A model generated the notes under the pieces. The model was not told the DNA's origin. It did not search any database and was given only the letters and a program-made list of their open reading frames with translations. DNA of 64,000 nucleotides from the NCBI GenBank assembly GCA_027053075.1, contig JALUEE010000090.1, positions 1-64,000 on the forward strand, given 5' to 3'. The DNA comes from a candidate division WOR-3 bacterium (GTDB taxonomy: Bacteria; Hydrothermota; Hydrothermia; B15-G9; WFZT01). Below, piece by piece: positions 49,650-63,064 of this stretch; position 1 is the stretch's first letter; each line of letters begins with the position of its first letter. A program made the translations under genes and the position numbers.

Positions 49650-52400
49650 ATGCAATCAATGTTATTGGCATTTTTATTGTTTTCGCAGCAGCAGGTGACG
49701 ATACAGCAGATTCAAGGTAACGGTCCAACGTCCCCCTATGTTGGTCAAAGAGTGATAACCACTGGAGTAGTAACTGGTGTCTACCAGCATGGATTTTTTA
49801 TAGAGGACACCAGTGCAGGTCCCTGGAGTGGAATATGGGTCCATTCATACGCAAGTGTTGCAAGGGGTGACTTTATCAGGCTTTCTGGGGTTGTGGTGGA
49901 ATACTACGATTTAACCGAGCTTGATAGCACGGAGAATGTTTCAGTGCTGGCTCATGGATATGTCATCCCCCCGGAGACCCTTTCAACCCATGATGTTGCC
50001 AATGAGATGTGGGAAAGTGTACTGGTGACGGTTCTTGGGGCCGTATGTGATTCTCTTCCCAACCAGTACGGTGAATGGTGGGTGAATGATGGAAGTGGCC
50101 CAATAATGGTTGACGATATGGGATACGCCGCATCTCCAACCCTCGGTCACTGTTACAATATAACCGGGCCGGTTTACTATTCCTATAGAAATTATAAAAT
50201 TGAGCCGAGGGACGCCAACGATGTTCAGGAAGTTGTCTGTCCCATTAGATTCACAAATGTTTACTTTAACCCAACTTTGCCAGATCCAGACGAGGATGTT
50301 TCTGTGGTTGCAGTGGTGAGTTCTCATACCCAGATTTATCAGGACTCGTTGTTTTATGCAGTAAACGGGACTTCTTCCTGGAATTCTGTGCCTCACGACA
50401 GTGTTGTCGGCTCAAACTACTATTACACTATTCCTCATCAGCCACTCGGTAGTATAGTCCATTTCTATATCACGCTCTGGAGGCAGGACTTAAGCTTTGA
50501 AACATCCGATACTCTCATGTATCTCGTGCCTGATTTCTCGAAAACCATTCCGCTTGGTTTTGTCCATGTCCTCGATAGAAACGGAGTTTCTATTCTTGAA
50601 GGAAGAACCATTAAATTTACCGGGAAATTAACCACGGGAGGCGAACTTGGCCTCACATACTTCTTGCAGGATACCTCAGGTGGAATAGCCATCTATAATC
50701 CGGGAGTCTCTCTGAATAGAGGCGACAGTGTTGTGGGAATGGGCACTGTGGAGTCTTATTACGGTCTTGCGGAATTGAAAAATGTTTCCTTCAGCTTGAT
50801 TGAGCATGGAAACGAAATACCTCCACAGGTGGTTACCTGCAGGGAGCTTTCGGAGAATGGAGAGAAGTATGAAGGTAAACTTTTGAGAATAAAGGGTGTA
50901 ACCTCGACTGCTACCTTCTTCCCGGTGGATGGAACCATCACTGTGACTGATTCAACAGGTACTTTTACCCTTTTCATCGACAGAGATACTGACCTTGGCT
51001 CGCTTCCTGTGCCTGAGGGAGAGTTTGATGTTATTGGTGTTCTTTCCCAGCACGATGCAACACCTCCTTATACTGAAGGCTATCAGCTCGTCCCAAGGTC
51101 CCACGAGGATGTGATATTCCAGGGTAATGGAAGTGGTGAGGTCAATATTATCCCGCCCATCGCTTTTCCCGGTGACACGACGTCACTGCATTTTGAAGGT
51201 AGCAATTTACCTGGAAATGTCAGGGTAGTTATCCCAACAGGGCTCGAATGGAGCTTTGATACTACTGATGTCCAGGTATCAGGTGTTGACTCATTTAGTA
51301 TTGATACGACCTCGCGTTTTGTTACTTTTTACAGCACGGACACACTGATTTCTTTTGACCTTGAAAATGTATATGTGCCCGATACAACAAGAGATTACAT
51401 CTTCATGGTGAAGACCTCTTCTGGCACCAGTTTCAGGAGAATAATGAAATATCCGGTGCTCTACACAGTGACTCCGCTTAAGGATGTTCAGGGTGACGAT
51501 TACACCTCTCCCATGCTTGGAGATACCGTTCGGATCGGAGGCTGGGTCATTGGCCCATCAGACGTGTTCAGCCCATCAGGTAAGACAACATTCTGGCTCT
51601 ATGATGGGACAGACGGTGTGGAAGCCTTTTCTTACAGCACAACACCACCTGAAAGGGTGGGAGATTTTATCGTGCTCACAGGAGTCGTCAATGAGTACAA
51701 TGGACTTACGCAGGTAACATTTTCATCTGATGGATTTACAAAGGTTTTAAGTGTATCTCCTGATTCCCCATTCCTGCCTACGCCTGATACTCTTGGAGAA
51801 TCTGAGGGACTCAACGAATCCCTTGAAGGTCATCTTGTCGTGGTTCGTGGAAATGTTGCCACTGATCCGTCTCGTGGTGGCAGTGGTTTTAATCTGACAA
51901 TAATGAACGGCCTTACACCTGTTGATCTGCGAATTTTAGATGCAACCGGAATTGATGTCACACAGTTTCACAAAGGACAGGTCCTGGAAGTTAGAGGAAT
52001 TGTTTCCCAGTACGACCAGACCCCTCCATTTACTTCTGGTTACCAGCTTATGCCTGTGAAACCCGGCGATATAAGGATTTTTCAGGGTCAGACGACAACA
52101 GCGGTTTCCATGCAGCTCAACAGGTCGGTGGGAATTATAGATGATGGTAAGACTTTCACAATAACCGTGAAATCACCTTCAACTGCTGAGAATACTATTA
52201 CAATCTACGACCTCGAAGGCCGGAAGATCAGGACACTGATTGAGCGACACGTGGGGCCTGTGGTGGTAAACTGGAATCTACTTGACGATTACGGCCAGAC
52301 GGTTAAATTAGGAATGTATATCATTCAGCTAAAGTCAATTGTAGGTGGAAAGACAAAAGTTTTAAATAAACTTGTGCTTGTGACGAGGAGGTTTAAGTAA
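49650..52400 (+). CDS. Secreted protein with repeated OB-type modules, Ig-like spacers and a FlgD-Ig-like C-terminal domain
   Basis: Three repeats of I..(I/V)QG..SP..G..V..G / G.V.EY.GLT / YQL.P; C-terminal IYDLEGRKIRTL..W..G.Y. Confidence 0.75.
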   Translation: MQSMLLAFLLFSQQQVTIQQIQGNGPTSPYVGQRVITTGVVTGVYQHGFFIEDTSAGPWSGIWVHSYASVARGDFIRLSGVVVEYYDLTELDSTENVSVLAHGYVIPPETLSTHDVANEMWESVLVTVLGAVCDSLPNQYGEWWVNDGSGPIMVDDMGYAASPTLGHCYNITGPVYYSYRNYKIEPRDANDVQEVVCPIRFTNVYFNPTLPDPDEDVSVVAVVSSHTQIYQDSLFYAVNGTSSWNSVPHDSVVGSNYYYTIPHQPLGSIVHFYITLWRQDLSFETSDTLMYLVPDFSKTIPLGFVHVLDRNGVSILEGRTIKFTGKLTTGGELGLTYFLQDTSGGIAIYNPGVSLNRGDSVVGMGTVESYYGLAELKNVSFSLIEHGNEIPPQVVTCRELSENGEKYEGKLLRIKGVTSTATFFPVDGTITVTDSTGTFTLFIDRDTDLGSLPVPEGEFDVIGVLSQHDATPPYTEGYQLVPRSHEDVIFQGNGSGEVNIIPPIAFPGDTTSLHFEGSNLPGNVRVVIPTGLEWSFDTTDVQVSGVDSFSIDTTSRFVTFYSTDTLISFDLENVYVPDTTRDYIFMVKTSSGTSFRRIMKYPVLYTVTPLKDVQGDDYTSPMLGDTVRIGGWVIGPSDVFSPSGKTTFWLYDGTDGVEAFSYSTTPPERVGDFIVLTGVVNEYNGLTQVTFSSDGFTKVLSVSPDSPFLPTPDTLGESEGLNESLEGHLVVVRGNVATDPSRGGSGFNLTIMNGLTPVDLRILDATGIDVTQFHKGQVLEVRGIVSQYDQTPPFTSGYQLMPVKPGDIRIFQGQTTTAVSMQLNRSVGIIDDGKTFTITVKSPSTAENTITIYDLEGRKIRTLIERHVGPVVVNWNLLDDYGQTVKLGMYIIQLKSIVGGKTKVLNKLVLVTRRFK

Positions 52401-53794: not shown

Positions 53795-54184
53795 TTGAAG
53801 ATGAAAGTTCAGCTGATTTTGTCGCTGATTTACTTTATAGTCGCGGCACTGTTTTTGGGAGTAAACTCGGAGTATGCAAGAGGGACATTCCACATCAACC
53901 TGATTTTCGGGAAAGCAGATGTTGCCATTTTCCCTTTGATTATTGGCATCTCTTTCATCTGGATGCTCATCATTATTCTCATTGACTACATGAGCATAAA
54001 CTCGCTAAAGAAGCAGATTTACAAGCTAAAAGCACAGGTCCACGACACTGAAAAATCCGAGATGCTAAAACTCCTTAAAGAAATCAATGAAAAATTTGAT
54101 GGGCACGCAACAACTGTTTATCAGCAGTTGCATGAAATTGAGGAGATAATCAAGGGAAAGCAAAATCAGCAGAAAACGGAGTAG
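53795..54184 (+). CDS. Small two-TM + coiled-coil protein, LapA-like architecture
   Basis: Two hydrophobic segments, charged tail, AAGGAGGT RBS. Confidence 0.6.
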   Translation: MKMKVQLILSLIYFIVAALFLGVNSEYARGTFHINLIFGKADVAIFPLIIGISFIWMLIIILIDYMSINSLKKQIYKLKAQVHDTEKSEMLKLLKEINEKFDGHATTVYQQLHEIEEIIKGKQNQQKTE

Positions 54185-55556: not shown

Positions 55557-55788
55557 AATCTGGTTTTTAGGGATGTAGAGTTGTTTTAATTTTTGTGGGG
55601 CCGCGCACTATTTTTCAAACTTCAAGCCTTTCGGTCAATATTTATACACTCGCTCAGGAATATCTCATTTTTCCTGAACCTGCAAATACCCATTTGCCCA
55701 TGGAGCCAGGATAGGAAGAGAATTTGTCTTACATTCTTTGACACAACCTTTATAATTTCTATGACAAAAACTTCATGGAGGTGTTTTT

Positions 55789-57459
55789 ATGGATCGTCCG
55801 TGGCTGAAATTCTACGATGAAGATGTACCACGGAGTATTGATTATCCCAGAATGCCCATCTATGGCATTCTCGATGGTTCAGCAGAAAAGTTCCCCTCCA
55901 AAACGGCTTCCATATTCTACGGTAAAAAGCTCACTTACAAAGAGCTAAAAGAATTATCCGATAGATTTGCAAATTCCCTCAAAAAACTTGTCATTGGAAA
56001 AGGAGACAAAGTAGCACTTCTCCTGCCAAACTTCCCGGGTTACGTTATTGCCTACTTTGGTGCTTTAAAATCCGGCGCTGTCGTTGTCCCACTGAATCCC
56101 CTTTACACAGAGAGTGAGCTTGAGTTTCACTTTAACGATTCCAGTGCGGAGACCGTTGTTACAATCCCTATGTTTGTTGAAAAGGCAGCCGCACTAACGA
56201 AAAAGACACCACTCAAGCGTGTCATCGTTTCCTACATTGCTGACTTTTTACCATTTCCCCTCAGTTTTGTTCAGAAACTCAGAGAAAATCCATATGTGAA
56301 GCGGGCAAAGAAGACCATTTCAGGTGAGCTTCTCAATATGAAAGACATGATTTCGAGCCCTGCCACTGGTTTTAAACCTGCACAGGTGAATCCCGATGAG
56401 CTTGGAATTCTCATTTATTCGGGAGGTACAACAGGTGTGGCAAAGGGGATAATGCTCTCTCACTACGCAGTTGTGGCAAATGCCCACATGATCAAAGCCT
56501 GGGGTCACCTTGATGAAAACGAGAGGATGCTGGCAGTGCTGCCGTTTTTTCACGGCTACGGCATGAATGTAACCATGAACGCAGCACTACTCTCGGGCAT
56601 GTCCATTGTAATGCTGCCCAGATTCAGCGCGCGCGAGATGGCAAAGACCATTGATAAATACAAACCCACGCAGACCGCAGTTGTTCCCACCATCCTCGTT
56701 GCACTTTCCGCTGTCAAAAACGTGGAAAAGTATGATTTTTCAAGCCTCAAGGCCATTTGGGTTGGAGCTGCCCCGCTGACTGCTGCCATCAAAGAGAATT
56801 TTGAGAAGAAAACCGGTGGACGTGCCATAGAGGGTTATGGCCTCACCGAGGCAGTCACTGCAATAATGGCCAATCCCATGAAGGGAAAACACAAGGTAGG
56901 AAGTATCGGACTCCCATTCCCTGATGTTGATGCGAAAATCGTTTCACTTGATGGAACAAAAGACCTTCCATCCGGTGAGGTGGGAGAGATTGCACTAAAA
57001 ACCCCGACCGTGATGCTCGGTTACTACAATAGACCCGAGGAAACTGCAAAAACCATTAAAGACGGCTGGCTTCTCACTGGGGATATTGGTTTTATGGACG
57101 AAGAGGGTTATTTTTATATAACCGACAGGAAAAAGGACCTCATCATTGTTGGTGGATTTAACGTTTTCCCGAGGGAAATTGACGAGTTGATTTATAAGCA
57201 TCCGAAGGTGAAAGAGGGAATAACTGTTGGCGTGCCTGATGAATTTAAGGGTGAGAAAATAAAAGTCTTTATCGTGCTCAAAGAGGGTGTTACAGCCACG
57301 GCAGAAGAGTTTATTGAATATTTCAAAAAGCACCTTGCCCCCTACAAAGTGCCAAGTGAGGTAGAATTCAGGAAAGAGCTTCCAAAGAGTGCAATTGGAA
57401 AGATTCTTCGAAGGGTACTAAGAGAGGAGGAAATCAAAAAGCGTGGTAAAAATACCTAA
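55789..57459 (+). CDS. Long-chain-fatty-acid--CoA ligase (FadD-like)
   Basis: YSGGTTG..KG, LPFFH.YG, EGYGLTE, TGDIG, PKSAIGKILRR. Confidence 0.9.
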   Translation: MDRPWLKFYDEDVPRSIDYPRMPIYGILDGSAEKFPSKTASIFYGKKLTYKELKELSDRFANSLKKLVIGKGDKVALLLPNFPGYVIAYFGALKSGAVVVPLNPLYTESELEFHFNDSSAETVVTIPMFVEKAAALTKKTPLKRVIVSYIADFLPFPLSFVQKLRENPYVKRAKKTISGELLNMKDMISSPATGFKPAQVNPDELGILIYSGGTTGVAKGIMLSHYAVVANAHMIKAWGHLDENERMLAVLPFFHGYGMNVTMNAALLSGMSIVMLPRFSAREMAKTIDKYKPTQTAVVPTILVALSAVKNVEKYDFSSLKAIWVGAAPLTAAIKENFEKKTGGRAIEGYGLTEAVTAIMANPMKGKHKVGSIGLPFPDVDAKIVSLDGTKDLPSGEVGEIALKTPTVMLGYYNRPEETAKTIKDGWLLTGDIGFMDEEGYFYITDRKKDLIIVGGFNVFPREIDELIYKHPKVKEGITVGVPDEFKGEKIKVFIVLKEGVTATAEEFIEYFKKHLAPYKVPSEVEFRKELPKSAIGKILRRVLREEEIKKRGKNT

Positions 57460-58564
57460 GAGGCACGAGGTTTGCAGGAAATTTAAGGAGCAGGGGGGAA
57501 AGGTTGCGGCAGTATTGCCCATCCATTATCCGAGAGCACTTTTGAGGGCTTTTGATATACTACCTGTGGAAGTGTGGGGACCTCCTCAAGTGGACGTAAG
57601 TTATGGAGGTGCACACCTGCAGCCCTATGTTTGCTCGATAGTTCACAATGCCCTTTCGTTTCTCAAAACCGGTGGGCTGGATGAAACCGACATTATCATT
57701 GTTCCGCACACGTGTGACTCGCTTCAGGGATTTGGAAGCATTCTGCTTGATTTTGTTAAGCCCAGACAGCCGGTTTTTCCAATTTATTTGCCACGCGGAA
57801 AAAGGTCGGAGGATGTTGAATTTCTGGTGAATGAGTTTAAATCTCTATACAGGGGGCTCGAAAAAATTACCGGCAAAAGCCCGATGGATGATGAGATGCT
57901 TAAGAGAATCGAAATTGAAGAGGAGGCCGATGCAAAGCTAAAAGAGCTTTATGAGATCAGGGGTGAATTTTCCTTTGAGTCAGGAAAGACCAAAAGCAGG
58001 TCAAGCAAGGGAGAAGCCCTTTCAACCTACGATTTTTACAGGGTTGTGCGGGCAAGAGAATTTTTACCAGCCGAGAAATTTATTGAGATTGCTGACGAGG
58101 TGATTTCGGAATATTCATTTGTAAGAGATGGTGTGCCTGTGATACTTTCGGGGATAGTTCCAGAGCCCATGGAGGTTTTGAATGCCATTGAAGAAGCCGG
58201 GGGATTTGTCGTTGTAGATGACCTTGCCTGCTGTGGCAGACGTCTTTATGGACGTGGAAAATCGAGTGAGCCATTGAAAAGGATGGCCGAAAGGATTATT
58301 TTCGGGCCACCTGATGTGACACGAGGGAATTTGATTGAGGAGAGGTTTGAACATTTGAAGTATCTTGCTGAGGTCACAGGGGCACGCGGTATCATTTTCT
58401 ATACTGTAAAGTTCTGCGAGCCCGAGTTATTTGATTTACCTGACCTGAAGAATATGCTGAAGAGTGCGGGGGTACCTTCGGTGCAGGTTGAGATCGATAT
58501 CGGTGACCCATTACCTCATCAGACTATCACGAGATTGACTGCGTTTTTAGAGGTGCTGGCATGA
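57443..58564 (+). CDS. 2-hydroxyacyl-CoA dehydratase beta-type subunit (HadC/HgdB/BcrC family)
   Basis: VCS, HTCD and KFCEP Cys ligands; TRL.AF.E C-terminus. Confidence 0.85.
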
Positions 58565-59883
58565 GTTTGAAAGACCATCTCAAATATTACTGGAATGTGA
58601 AGCTTGTTGGGAGTGCCTATCTCAGGTGGCAGAGGTGGCAGGCAGAGCGGAAGCCTCGAATTCCGCGAAATTGGAGAACGAATATAATCGCACCACCGCT
58701 GAAGATCAGTGCCCGCACAAAAGAGCTGATCTCAAGGCATTATCTTGAGGGAAGGTATGCGAATGGGCATAAGCCTGTTGCGTGGGTTACATCTGGTGGG
58801 CCGGTCGAAATCCTTCAGGCTCTTGGCTTTTATGTTTTGTATCCTGAAAATCACGGCGCGCTCTGTGGAGCGCGCCGTTACGCTCTTGAACTCTCAGAAG
58901 AGGCCGAAAACTACGGTTTCTCCCAGGATATTTGCTCATACGCGAGGACGGATATAGGGAGCATGCTCTCGGGGAAGACACCGATTGGAAGACTTCCAAA
59001 GCCTGATCTTCTGCTTGCATGCACAAATATTTGTCAGACAGTGCTTTTCTGGTATCGAGTGCTTGCAAAGCATTTTAACGTTCCGATTATCCTGATTGAC
59101 ACACCATTCGTTTACAAAGATGCACCGGAGCACGCTATTGAATACGTGAAAAAGCAGCTCGAGGCTTCGATTCCGGTGGCCCAGAGGGTTGCAAAGAAAA
59201 AGCTTAGCTTTAAAAAATTAAAGGAAGTTGTGAGGCTCAGCCGTGAGGCTTCTGAGCTGTGGCTCGAGATTATGTATAGGGGAAAGGCAAAGCCTGCCCC
59301 GATCTCGGTTTTTGACCAGTTCATACACATGGCTCCAATTGTGGAGATGCGGGGTAAACCCGAAACGGTGGATTTTTACGCAGCAATGCTCAAAGAGGTT
59401 GATGAAAGAATCAAAAAGGGTATCGGAGCAGTGAAGAATGAGAGGAAAAGGCTGCTCTGGGATAATTTGCCCATCTGGTATAAACTGAGATTCCTTGCGG
59501 AGTATCTTGGTGAGCATGGGATTTCGGTGGTTGCTTCTACTTATACCATGGCATGGGGTGAGCTTGCCCCATTGATTGACCCGGAAAGACCCATTGAATC
59601 AATGGCAAAGACTTATATTTACCCAATTTTGAATCGTGGAACAGGCTACAAGTTGCAAAAGATGAGGGACATGGTTGAGGAATTTGACCTTGATGGTGCA
59701 ATTTTGCATTCTGACCGCTCGTGTAAGCCTTATTCTATCGGACAGGTGGATCAGAGGAACAGATTGATCAGTGAATACGGGATACCTGCTCTTATTTTAG
59801 AGGCTGATCATAATGATCCCCGGGCATTTGCAGATGAGCAGGTAAAAGCAAGACTTGATTCATTTATAGAGATGCTGGAATGA
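58561..59883 (+). CDS. 2-hydroxyacyl-CoA dehydratase alpha-type subunit (HadB/HgdA/BcrB family)
   Basis: YPENH, DICSYAR, NIC, RSCKP, D..DPR. Confidence 0.88.
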
Positions 59884-60656
59884 TTAAAGCAATAGGAATT
59901 GATGTAGGTTCAACAACGGCAAAGATTGTAGGAGTTAACGAGGGTGGGGACTTTGTGTGGAGCTATATTGAACCTGCCGACCCAAGGGTAGAGGACCAGG
60001 TGGAGAGGTTTCTCGAGAAGGTCAGGGAAGTGGCAGGTTCCATTGAAGGAATTCCCATAGTGGCAACAGGTTATGGAAGAAACCTTGTCCATCAGGCAAC
60101 GAAGAAGGTGACAGAAATCACCTGCCATGCGCGCGGGGTTTTCAAGCAGCTTGGCCATGGTGGAACGCTTGTGGATATTGGTGGACAGGACAGTAAGGTG
60201 ATTGTAATAGGGCCGCATGGAGAGGTGGTGGATTTCACCATGAACGACAAGTGCGCCGCAGGGACAGGAAGATTTCTTGAAAATACTGCCGGAAGGCTCA
60301 GGGTGAAGCTCGAAGAGATGGGGAGTGTGGCCCTCTCTGCTCCTGAAGAGGTGAAAATTTCCAGTACGTGTACGGTTTTTGCTGAATCTGAGATTATTTC
60401 AATGATTGCTCATGGTGTGAGGGTTGAGCCCATTTTAAAGGGGCTTCACAGGTCCCTTGTGAAGCGAATTGTTGCCATGATTAGAAGTGTGGGGCTGGTG
60501 CCTCCATTGATGCTGTCCGGGGGAGTAGTAAAAAACCCGGCAATAAGGAAGATGATTGAGGAAGAAACGGGAGAGAAGGTAATTTTACCCGAGCACCCGC
60601 AGTTCATGGGCGCCTACGGCGCCGCCTTGATAGGATTGAAGTTGGGGAAAGGGTAG
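59880..60656 (+). CDS. Dehydratase activator ATPase (HadI/HgdC, ASKHA fold)
   Basis: [49 protein letters not shown]. Confidence 0.93.
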
Positions 60657-60751
60657 GCAAATTAGGAGAATTATTAAATTCAAAGAATTTTGTTTACTTT
60701 CCTGAGAGTTATTTGGTTATAGCAATCCCCATTGGAAATTATAAAATATAG

Positions 60752-61150
60752 CCCCTCACCTTGCCTCTCCCCGCAAAGAATTTATGCGGGGAGAGGAAGT
60801 TTTTGGGTGTAGGAGTAATTGATTGAACATGCAAACGGAGCGCATAGGCTAAATGAATTTCCACCTGTACATCCCTGCAATCACAATATAAATTACCAGA
60901 AAACCAAGTAGAACCTTTCTAACAAGCGAAACTTGTTTCCCCCAACAACACAAAATATTTCCCTCCCCTGCGCTTTGCGCTGGGGAGGGTGAGGGAGGGG
61001 TATTCCGCTTGAAATCTTGAAATTACATATCTAAACCATCACCCTTACCCCCTTCTGCTAAGCTGAAGAGGTAGATAGATTTTTCCTCAAAACTTTTGAA
61101 ATGTAGCCTCTTTCCTCAACCCTCTTAAACAAATTTTTGTGGGAAAAGTT
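60752..61150. repeat. Cluster of BoxC/REP-like hairpin modules
   Basis: CCCCTCACCTTGCCTCTCCCCGC-AAAGAATTTAT-GCGGGGAGAGG, and a GCGCTTTGCGC hairpin + GTATTCCGCTTGAAA. Confidence 0.8.
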
Positions 61151-61297
61151 TTTTATAAAATCGTCAACCTGTTTGAGCCCCCTCGTTTAGACGCTTCCTC
61201 GTAATTATGCGCCCCAATTTACACTGTAGCAAATTCAACAATGTGCACCAATAGAAACCCGGTTGTTTGTGCCATCGGTGGAAATTATCATATCAAT

Positions 61298-63064
61298 ATG
61301 AAGAAAGAGTTGAGGCCTGAGGAACTCAAAGATAGCCTGATTTCAGGTGCGGCCAATGTTATTAAAAATCGGGAAAAGCTCAACAAGATCAACGTCTTCC
61401 CGGTGCCGGATGGGGATACCGGTTCAAACCTTGCGGAGACCTTCAAAAGTATTCTCCAAACCCTAAAAAGTCGCGATTTTGACAGTGCCCACGCTCTTCT
61501 CAGTGCTGTATCACGAAACATGCTTAGAAATGCCAGAGGAAATTCAGGGGTCATATTTTCCCAATTTTTCTACAGTTTCAGCAAGTCTTTGAAGGGCAAG
61601 AAAAACGTTTCAATTCATGATTTTGCGGAAAGTATGAAGCAATCTATCAAAAAGACCTATGAAGCACTTGAAAAGCCTGTCGAAGGCACTGTTCTCACGG
61701 TCATCAGAGAGGTATCCGAAGAGGCTGAGAAAATTTCCTTGAAGGTAAATGATTTTCGTGAATTTATAGAGCATCTTCAGGAAACCGCTAAAAAATCGGT
61801 TGAAAAAACGCGGGAGACATTGCCACAGTTGAAAAAGGCACGGGTGGTGGATGCCGGTGGACTCGGATTCCTTTATTTTTTACAGGGAATTTCTGCTTAT
61901 TTTAAAGGAGATAGGATTAAATTTGATGAGGATTTTTCGGCATCCCGCGTTGACGAATACAAGGCTGAATTTAGCGAGAAGTATAGATATTGTACAGAAG
62001 TTTTACTTGAGGATAGCAGATTAAATTCTGTTGAAATAAAAAGGAAGCTCTCTTCTCTTGGAGATTCCCTTATTGTTGTGGGTGACCCGGCTCTATTTCA
62101 CATACATATTCACACAGACGAGCCTGAAAAAGTTTTTAAAACACTTTCCGAAGTTGGAAAAATCAGGATGAAAAAGGCCGACGACATGCATGCGCAGGTG
62201 CGCATCAGGCAGGATTATGCAATTCTTGTGGATTCAGGAATGGACCTCCCTCCTTCGTATTATCAAAAATATGGGTTCAAGGTAATTCCCTTTCAGGTTT
62301 TCGTCGGGAATAAATCGTATAAAGAAGGAGTGGATATATCTCGTGAAGAGATTATAAAAATCCTCACTTCAAACAGATGGAAAGAATTGAAAACCTCGCA
62401 GCCTGCCTTCTCCGATTATTTAGAAGCTTATAAAGAGCTCTTAAACCGGGCTCGTCACGTATATGCCATTCATCTATCTTCAAATTTCAGTGGCACATAT
62501 TCGAGTTCGGTTACAGCCGCGGAAAGGATTGACCCTGAGCGTATCACGGTTTTTGACACAAAACTGTTCAGTATTGCTGCTGGTCTGCTGGCTTTAAGGA
62601 TCAGAGATATGATTGAGAAAAAGATGCCGCGAGAGGAAATTCTAAAGAAAATTGAAGAAATTCGGCTCCAATCCTTTGCTGTAATAGTTCTCGATACCAT
62701 GAAAAATTTGGTTCATGGAGGTAGGGCTGGGAAGCTTAAAGGAGGGTTTGTAGATTTCCTTGGTATCAAATTGATTATCACCATTGATGAGGATGGATAC
62801 CTCAAAAAACTCACCCAGGCCTTTGGAAGAAAAGCCGCCCTCAAGAAAGTTTTATCTCTTTTGCGAGAGAAACTGGACCCGGGACGCACTTATGACTTTG
62901 GAATAGCTCACGTAAATACACCTCAAAAAGTGGAGTTTATCAGGGAATTCATCAGGTCAAATTTTAAGTACAGGGACATTATCGTGAACTACACCACCCC
63001 TGCAATTGCTGTCTATGGTGGTCCTGGAGCTTATGGGGTATTTGCGGTACCTGTAGAAGAATAG
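61298..63064 (+). CDS. DAK2 (FakA-like) + DegV (FakB-like) fusion, fatty-acid kinase
   Basis: NVFPVPDGDTG.N, ARGNSG, VDAGG, YCTE, HIHT, then DegV KTSQP, SS..SGTY, GGR; start set at ATG 61298. Confidence 0.9.
   Translation: MKKELRPEELKDSLISGAANVIKNREKLNKINVFPVPDGDTGSNLAETFKSILQTLKSRDFDSAHALLSAVSRNMLRNARGNSGVIFSQFFYSFSKSLKGKKNVSIHDFAESMKQSIKKTYEALEKPVEGTVLTVIREVSEEAEKISLKVNDFREFIEHLQETAKKSVEKTRETLPQLKKARVVDAGGLGFLYFLQGISAYFKGDRIKFDEDFSASRVDEYKAEFSEKYRYCTEVLLEDSRLNSVEIKRKLSSLGDSLIVVGDPALFHIHIHTDEPEKVFKTLSEVGKIRMKKADDMHAQVRIRQDYAILVDSGMDLPPSYYQKYGFKVIPFQVFVGNKSYKEGVDISREEIIKILTSNRWKELKTSQPAFSDYLEAYKELLNRARHVYAIHLSSNFSGTYSSSVTAAERIDPERITVFDTKLFSIAAGLLALRIRDMIEKKMPREEILKKIEEIRLQSFAVIVLDTMKNLVHGGRAGKLKGGFVDFLGIKLIITIDEDGYLKKLTQAFGRKAALKKVLSLLREKLDPGRTYDFGIAHVNTPQKVEFIREFIRSNFKYRDIIVNYTTPAIAVYGGPGAYGVFAVPVEE

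Follow-up and report, generated by a model that had tools for sequence, protein, structure and literature searches.

What does an operon that couples a fatty-acid-type ligase to a radical dehydratase do for the bacterium that carries it? The question arises from four genes in a stretch of 64,000 nucleotides (the window) of contig JALUEE010000090.1 of a candidate division WOR-3 bacterium, which encode, in the order ligase-beta-alpha-activator, an AMP-forming acyl-coenzyme A (acyl-CoA) ligase, the two subunits of an enzyme related to 2-hydroxyacyl-CoA dehydratases (HADs) and benzoyl-CoA reductases (BCRs), and a single activator. Our leading reading, which we hold tentatively, is that the ligase would activate, and the radical enzyme would dehydrate, a medium- or long-chain 2-hydroxy fatty acid for beta-oxidation. 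For the parts of this reading we are more confident: a dehydration rather than a reduction seems fairly probable and, given dehydration, a fatty chain is somewhat favoured over a short one. What the sequences show is gene content, phylogeny and the conservation of residues, from which the reaction and the substrate are inferred. The enzyme family and its mechanism are already known; what appears from the sequences to be new is the clade and its dedicated ATP-dependent ligase.

In the proposed scheme, the ligase would attach CoA to a free 2-hydroxy fatty acid of medium or long chain. The activator dimer, which we take from family knowledge to be a homodimer bridged by one [4Fe-4S] cluster, would then spend ATP to drive a single electron through the cluster of beta and on to the [4Fe-4S] site of alpha. 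As in the rest of the family, a ketyl radical at alpha would expel the 2-hydroxyl group, with Glu96 as acid/base, and the electron would be recycled over many turnovers. The product, a 2-enoyl-CoA, would enter the host's own beta-oxidation. Excerpts of PMC5897657 and PMC8473912 describe ketyl-radical elimination of water as the mechanism of 2-hydroxyacyl-CoA dehydratases. The downstream machinery is available: the host has a full beta-oxidation operon on contig C54; acyl-CoA dehydrogenases, crotonases, 3-hydroxyacyl-CoA dehydrogenases and the FabZ and FabF families were found in all five carriers tested; and electron-transferring flavoprotein (ETF) was found in 5/5 of a second set of five carriers.

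A sequence-only reading had described four overlapping genes, and the coordinates of the open reading frames (ORFs), which overlap by 17, 4 and 4 nt, bear this out, as do the Pfam and NCBIfam matches (Table 1). A purine-rich Shine-Dalgarno-like stretch precedes each of the four starts, and the operon, which lies between cysS on one side and a DAK2-DegV fusion on the other, has a GC content similar to that of its housekeeping neighbours. The host genome has no HGD-D genes besides the operon's two, and the operon activator is its only activator-like protein. Scans of the operon region for promoters and terminators gave a signal at chance level (10 promoter matches against 7.8 expected by chance, the best of which is listed in Table 1). 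The arrangement itself is far beyond chance: in our sample of related loci (the best 80 of 372 GTDB loci, many of them cut by contig ends), beta adjoins alpha in 77 and the activator is beside it in 58.

Table 1. Positions of the operon genes and of neighbouring features in the window
Feature	Position	Strand	Remarks
AMP-forming acyl-CoA ligase ('A-type' clade)	55789..57459	+	556 aa; Pfam AMP-binding and AMP-binding_C
Beta (electron-relay) subunit, HadC/BcrC/BzdN family	57443..58564	+	373 aa, GTG start; Pfam HGD-D
Alpha (catalytic) subunit, HadB/BcrB/BzdO family	58561..59883	+	440 aa; Pfam HGD-D
Clade-specific N-terminal extension of alpha	58561..58695	+	about 45 aa, predicted helix 3-30
Single ATP-dependent activator, HgdC/HadI type, ASKHA ATPase	59880..60656	+	258 aa; Pfam BcrAD_BadFG
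Candidate sigma-70-like promoter upstream of the ligase	55728..55756	+	10/12 match
Dispersed palindromic intergenic repeat, REP- or MITE-like	60735..61130		two hairpins of about -30 kcal/mol each
DAK2-FakA-middle-DegV fusion (FakA-FakB in one chain)	61241..63064	+	Pfam/NCBIfam; start perhaps at the second ATG, 61298
Secreted-looking protein	49650-52400	+	916 aa; repeated OB-fold-like units, C-terminal FlgD Ig-like domain
Protein with two hydrophobic segments	53795-54184	+	129 aa; no Pfam match

The activator is the sole operon protein above an NCBIfam cut-off (TIGR00241, CoA_E_activ; 249 against 125). The top models for the ligase are long-chain-fatty-acid--CoA ligases, all under cut-off; those for beta and alpha are HadC (122 bits against a cut-off of 700) and HadB (287 bits against 750). 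The BCR and BZD models give the operon subunits 172/87 and 148/87 bits against cut-offs of 421-487. The best PDB match is (R)-2-hydroxyisocaproyl-CoA dehydratase, HadBC with HadI and HadA (PDB 3O3M/3O3N/3O3O; E 1e-68 for alpha, 2e-29 for beta). An AlphaFold model of alpha (predicted local distance difference test, pLDDT, 93) superposes on HadB at 1.8 Å root-mean-square deviation and 32% identity, and on MbdO/BzdO at 2.6-3.2 Å. The operon enzyme resembles HadBC in its Ser/Glu pair, its three cluster cysteines per subunit and its single activator gene, and differs from it in a Gly-Gly/Ala pocket floor, a 45-residue N-terminus and a Cys-Cys pair at beta 263-264. Both operon subunits are distantly homologous to the double-cubane cluster protein DCCP with its reductase DCCP-R (PDB 6ENO, 7YYL), a system presumably of the same single-gene activator type. 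DCCP is built from two identical subunits that each hold a double cubane (PMC11971306); the operon enzyme is a heterodimer and reaches 77-99 bits where the cut-off is 350. We also saw an approximately 425-aa single HGD-D gene with an activator, 21-25% identical and probably DCCP-like, in about 50/272 genomes of the host phylum (L014-L032).

Trees of alpha were built with FastTree (129 rows) and with IQ-TREE under LG+G4 (47 hand-chosen rows). The clade of the operon's alpha has a support of 99 in the former and 100/99 in the latter. It lies outside the HadB-anchored group, which is monophyletic (100/100) and whose anchor P0206 passes the HadB cut-off with 778 bits; outside a BcrB-like group, whose anchors score no higher than 266-320 bits; and outside the one that holds the BzdO anchor L247, which passes the BzdO cut-off. 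Nesting within a characterised clade, which would have refuted the earlier proposal, was thus not seen, in trees in which no row is confirmed as FldB, HgdA or LcdA. Judged on sequence, the operon enzyme is a member of the BCR/HAD family, probably HAD-like in its working, that belongs to no characterised subgroup. The backbone of the alpha trees is poorly supported, and the approximately unbiased (AU) test keeps a sister relation between the clade and HAD (p-AU 0.22).

At least 120 relatives of alpha share 67-98% identity with it; among representatives at 50% identity there are few full-length proteins with the N-terminal extension, and the bulk lies apart at no more than 44%. The clade spans at least seven named phyla of uncultured anaerobes, and the 80 loci come from Chloroflexota, Desulfurellales, Thermodesulfobacteriota, Calditrichota, Ignavibacteriota, Deferribacterota, Aquificota, Acidobacteriota and other bacteria. 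Occurrence is patchy (8/272 genomes in the host phylum, 9/37 in the phylum that contains Desulfurellales). The named carriers include Hippea/Desulfurellales and, in favour of a fatty substrate, excerpts of PMC3156395 report growth of Hippea maritima on palmitate and stearate. Locus L084 (G323, titled Aquificales) has the operon in full together with genes for beta-oxidation, with a caveat as to binning; Aquificales are a mostly autotrophic order, and the combination is unexpected there. Searches of the open-access literature, with subscription papers largely outside their scope, found neither this clade nor a long-chain HAD fed by a ligase described anywhere. There is nothing on the clade in the excerpts of PMC12890257, PMC3582634, PMC9686372 and PMC12283262, and no expression data in those of PMC11861179; a search of sequencing runs listed none from RNA.

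Is the reaction a dehydration or a reduction? We consider it unlikely that the enzyme is a reductase of the benzoyl-CoA reductase type, and the active site has something to say on both sides. Residues were mapped by transferring the BzdNO ligand list of PMC11971306 through pairwise alignments. In alpha, Cys125/Cys158/Cys388, Glu96 and Ser78 are kept in 77-78 of 78 sequences, and Ser78, Glu96, Tyr127 and Tyr328 match the BzdO active-site residues Ser44, Glu65, Tyr97 and Tyr298. Against this, His131, Gln274 and Trp46 of BzdO are replaced by Val161, Leu303 and Gly/Ala80, the scores are far under the BCR and BZD cut-offs, and alpha stands apart from both groups in the trees. Class I benzoyl-CoA reductases (BzdNOPQ, 8S02; MbdONPQ, 9G87) share with the operon enzyme the fold (template modelling score, TM, 0.82-0.83), the Glu/Ser pair, the cluster site, the ATP-driven electron input and, as aromatic pathways generally, feeding by a ligase. 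They differ in having two ATPase subunits (BcrA/BcrD or BzdP/BzdQ; both L247 and L248 have two) where the operon has one activator gene, with Cys125 and Cys164 invariant in 57/57 sequences.

In beta, Cys64, Cys91 and Cys325 are invariant. Two of the six double-cubane cysteines of BzdN, Cys36 and Cys293, are replaced by Pro26 and Asp291 (Asp in 72/74), and the third extra ligand survives within the mostly kept Cys263/Cys264 pair, so that a variant metal site is possible. The double-cubane set is thus incomplete, which matches the HAD pattern. However, MbdN, a true reductase subunit, is also without the extra cysteines in our alignment; the double cubane is not required for reduction, and the beta pattern is therefore not diagnostic and is compatible with it. 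Moreover, beta of a large related group (L240, L293, L295, L302; see below) keeps all six BzdN cysteines, and in L342:9995-11074, a deep beta of the clade itself, the Cys293 equivalent is kept and Cys263 is not. On the alignments, the beta subunits of the clade and its relatives would show a stepwise loss of double-cubane ligands around a near-constant alpha site.

The genomic setting also weighs against a reductase. The benzoyl-CoA ring hydrolase Oah (TIGR03200) was found in 0/5 carriers of the second set, three of which are at least 95% complete, and there is no dch, had or oah gene among the flanking ORFs of the related loci. Two genomes of the host phylum do have lone alpha-like genes with one activator in benzoyl-CoA clusters (L245, L246), which favours a reductase, but these alphas are on a different branch (37-39%). 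A HAD-type dehydratase is favoured because the activator is of the homodimer type, beta has three cluster cysteines and the ring hydrolase is found in none of the five hosts. As observations in their own right, L245:4522-11262 (G045) and L246:246-9998 (G020) have ligases near Oah or Oah-like hydrolases and crotonases; L245 has no beta gene beside its alpha-like gene and L246 begins at a contig edge. In addition, a complete bzdNOPQ set is present in G020 (L247), and G045 has bcr-like genes that include two ATPases (L248), i.e. anaerobic aromatic degradation occurs in the host phylum.

If water is eliminated, then from what? The sequence-only reading had proposed radical dehydration or reduction of a long-chain substrate such as a 2-hydroxy fatty acid. 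This still leads, with indirect support from the pocket floor, the N-terminal helix and a related lipid operon. The pocket floor of alpha is Gly79 with Gly/Ala80, where HadB has Val/Phe and BzdO has Ala45/Trp46. BzdO Trp46 occupies the space of a lost sub-cluster and so fills the floor (PMC11971306); the small residues of the clade would leave room for a longer chain. In 74/78 sequences the N-terminal extension has a mean net charge of +5.7 and a mean of 5.2 aromatic residues, and the helix predicted in it may be, as a guess from its composition, a membrane-surface anchor or interface.

The helix could also be taken to mean that the enzyme builds or remodels membranes, making precursors of unsaturated, vinyl-ether or alkyl-ether lipids from acyl-CoA. 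Besides the basic, aromatic helix, which is unique to the clade, the FadD-like ligase and the FakA-FakB fusion adjacent to the operon here and in one close relative would suit such a role. We regard it as the least likely of the readings. The FabF and FabZ families are in 5/5 hosts and the link to Fak is incidental; the patchy spread suits an optional catabolic module; and the architecture differs from that of PlsA/PlsR and Ger, in which the same activator and HGD-D-like folds act on lipid substrates. Those are large fused multidomain proteins that act on glycerolipid esters and have no CoA ligase; the operon consists of four separate genes of 258-556 aa. A lipid-building role like that of the plasmalogen synthase PlsA or the glycerol ester reductase Ger, whose related folds the sequence-only reading had mentioned, found no support. 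Among the flanking ORFs scanned, no acyltransferase, acyl carrier protein (ACP) or lipid-synthesis gene is conserved.

Characterised 2-hydroxyacyl-CoA dehydratases serve the fermentation of amino acids and lactate in clostridia. By this precedent, the operon might handle a 2-hydroxy acid that is short or stems from an amino acid (lactate, 2-hydroxybutyrate, 2-hydroxyisocaproate, aryllactate), activated by the ligase at the cost of ATP in place of a CoA-transferase and dehydrated as by Had, Fld or Lcd, a reading that we find doubtful yet the most serious competitor. All characterised HADs use such acids according to excerpts of PMC8473912 and PMC5897657, and the latter, in the same excerpts, gives CoA-transferase loading and short or aromatic acids. 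The hosts also have ETF and several acyl-CoA dehydrogenases at hand. Yet alpha lies outside the HadB-anchored group and differs from it at the pocket motifs. Unlike the Had, Hgd, Fld and Lcd systems, which load with a CoA-transferase, the operon has an AMP-forming ligase, and neither a 2-oxoacid reductase nor an acyl-CoA dehydrogenase/ETF pair is linked to it. We surveyed the flanks by clustering all ORFs of the 80 loci and scanning 227 of 233 selected ORFs with Pfam (six near-duplicates were left out); among these 227 ORFs, the operon has no conserved companion that is a 2-hydroxyacid dehydrogenase or a dehydrogenase linked to ETF. D-2-hydroxyacid dehydrogenase was found in 4/5 carriers, the fifth, 96% complete, having no match at E 1e-15, and LarA was found in 1/5 carriers of the second set. 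The lack of a linked 2-oxoacid reductase or acyl-CoA dehydrogenase/ETF pair fits scavenging of imported acids for oxidation better than a Stickland-type electron sink.

The ligase also bears on the question of the substrate. It lies on the FadD-like branch, with Archaeoglobus FadD-1 (3G7S) as its best PDB match and the NF005220/PRK06710 model of FadD-like long-chain ligases as its best, yet sub-threshold, HMM match. The host also has a generic FadD, 46% identical, in its beta-oxidation operon on contig C54, which makes the operon ligase a second, specialised enzyme. Ligases of its type (A-type) form one clade of 42 sequences with a support of 100 and a long stem. In all 42, Gly256, Val325, Val356, Thr357 and Ile359 (motif Val356-Thr357-Ala-Ile359) are invariant; these pocket residues differ in most of 39 generic FadD-like relatives. 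From the correspondence of motifs, we tentatively take the changes to fall at positions 235, 301 and 330 of the adenylation code. Their pattern may fit a C2-substituted substrate and leaves the chain length unfixed. In excerpts of PMC11355689, position 235 contacts the alpha-substituent (the alpha-amino group in nonribosomal peptide synthetase domains).

The linkage of ligase and radical enzyme, on whose conservation the earlier proposal depended, turned out to be dedicated and co-inherited without being universal. An A-type ligase (at least 53% identity) is adjacent, upstream or downstream, in 29/80 loci; another FadD-like ligase (39-44%) takes its place at six loci of related Chloroflexota, and one of 30% at a single locus. 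At the other 44 loci there is no adjacent ligase, although 22 of these extend for 2 kb or more to either side. Among the 51 genomes in which no A-type ligase adjoins the operon, 50 were searched, and 13 have one elsewhere. In 7 of 12 such places that we fetched, all seven from close kin, the ligase adjoins an activator, suggesting that the two remained together as the operon broke up. In the host phylum, an alpha orthologue (at least 79%) and an A-type ligase (at least 72%) occur in the same 8/272 genomes, of two genera. Pairwise identities of alpha and ligase are correlated (r 0.94, 35 pairs, inflated by kinship; 1000 shuffles all gave 0.27 or less), and the two depart from host taxonomy alike, which suggests transfer as a unit. 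A metagenome scan with the ligase gave 57 loci; the six inspected (at least 71%) all have it beside beta but, coming from close kin of the host, contribute little. Deeper members of the clade, in the phylum of G303, are different: at 20 loci there is the beta-alpha-activator trio only, and none of 40 genomes has an A-type ligase (best 45%; many incomplete). The conserved core is therefore beta-alpha-activator, with the dedicated ligase in a large sub-branch. At two loci in that phylum the trio is accompanied by a FadH-like flavoprotein and an acyl-CoA dehydrogenase of the long-chain type, in line with a fatty substrate.

Whether the ligase is also the operon's distinctive way of loading its substrate, as had been supposed, can be answered in part. 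There is no CoA-transferase family among the 227 flanking ORFs. Ligase feeding is not, however, unique to the clade: more distant ligase-bearing branches lie in clusters for aromatic compounds or amino acids (L242-L246), i.e. ligase feeding arose in several branches. L242-L244 (G352, G350, G354) combine a HAD-like pair with a ligase, a thiolase with an OB-fold partner, a crotonase and a 3-hydroxyacyl-CoA dehydrogenase, as well as a phenylacetate-CoA-ligase-like gene, a 2-oxoacid:ferredoxin oxidoreductase and an aldehyde:ferredoxin oxidoreductase; these clusters probably serve the oxidation of aromatic amino acids.

The main, albeit indirect, support for a fatty 2-hydroxy acid comes by analogy, from the large related group. 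Its alpha active-site motifs are almost letter for letter those of the operon's clade and unlike those of HAD, BCR and BZD. Where its operons include a ligase, this groups as sister to the A-type clade (support 99), with which it has Gly256 and the Val-Thr motif in common. In the genus of G325, 4/6 genomes have the related operon, and the three loci long enough to show it agree in gene order. In G325 this arrangement is found downstream of genes for FadL and a GDSL-lipase autotransporter, and the operon is back to back with a long-chain ligase, FadB, a thiolase, FadE and a second acyl-CoA dehydrogenase. This lipid-use supercluster (L240:7319-16571 and L310:2698-11175) also holds a V4R protein and a small membrane protein. 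In G566, the neighbours of a related operon are a 2-hydroxy-acid racemase of the LarA family, an IclR regulator and two further ligases. The FadD-like ligase and the FadL and lipase of this context point to lipids rather than to short acids.

The lipase and FadL would also suit an elimination through a ketyl radical on an acid from lipids that bears a different or a further substituent, e.g. dehydration of 3-O-alkylglyceryl-CoA, or the loss of a 2-alkoxy or 2-amino group. As a matter of chemical reasoning, the mechanism calls for a leaving group at C2 and would accept any tail; the floor of the pocket is open, and the ligase pocket is altered near C2/C3. Still, the conserved neighbours of the operon include no gene for alkylglycerol oxidation or for any other pathway and nothing is specific to ethers, and we give this reading little credence. 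The same holds for its boldest form, in which the helix-anchored enzyme and its ligase would make up an oxygen-independent route for lipid-derived 2-hydroxy acids outside the range of characterised radical dehydratases, with 3-O-alkylglyceryl-CoA as the substrate.

Returning to 2-hydroxy fatty acids, several observations weigh against them, and some of these favour short acids. Val325 and Ile359 of the ligase, and with them Val356, are bulkier than the Ser/Thr of generic FadD, and the pocket could be narrower. The A-type ligase had no match in 37 of the 50 genomes searched (many incomplete), nor in the 40 from deeper lineages of the clade. The N-terminal helix is amphipathic to a moderate degree only (hydrophobic moment 0.50 or less). 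The related group is of low identity (41-48% for alpha, 24-31% for beta), and its sister relation to the clade is kept by the AU test (p-AU 0.23), i.e. neither shown nor rejected. Several of 20 sampled loci of that group lie among amino-acid genes (aldehyde:ferredoxin oxidoreductase, alanine dehydrogenase, amino-acid permease and parts of an ADP-forming ligase), and in the phylum of G306 the sister ligase was found at 2/20 of the sampled loci (114 ORFs scanned). Around the clade itself, ORF clustering of the 80 loci gave no recurrent pathway gene; all that it turned up were antisense shadow ORFs and neighbours restricted to single lineages. Beside the operon there is no conserved transporter, lipase or beta-oxidation gene, and the 227 ORFs include a single acyl-CoA dehydrogenase. 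An aldehyde:ferredoxin oxidoreductase lies near three related Chloroflexota loci, and a GlcD-type FAD oxidase, of a family for short 2-hydroxy acids, near 4/80. A complex prediction for alpha with the ligase scored 0.00 and is evidence neither way.

The FakA-FakB fusion, which the sequence-only reading had counted towards a lipid role, proved to be an incidental neighbour. It starts 584 nt downstream of the operon, beyond a dispersed palindromic repeat that has about 200 BLAST pieces across the genome, some longer than 300 nt. Fusions of this kind occur in 28/272 genomes of the host phylum, all of the host's class, and 22 of these are without the operon. In four congeners the fusion is on other contigs, and searches of two operon-bearing genomes of another family did not find it. 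Among the related loci, a DegV-like gene lies near 1/80 only, on the opposite strand. We therefore rejected the fusion as a member of the pathway. Elsewhere in the window, the 916-aa protein of Table 1 sits between lnt and dnaB, and the Pfam scan called no nuclease domain in it; the 129-aa protein lies between dnaB and cysS.

2-Hydroxy fatty acids come from sphingolipids, lipid A, ornithine lipids and suberin. If such acids are the substrate, the operon would explain how anaerobes bypass the block that the 2-hydroxyl group sets to beta-oxidation, and the enzyme would be a radical biocatalyst for long chains. If instead 3-O-alkylglyceryl-CoA were dehydrated to an enol ether, anaerobic scavengers could cleave glycerol ether lipids. 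The beta subunits of the clade and its relatives also offer a natural test of the sub-cluster-loss model (PMC11971306).

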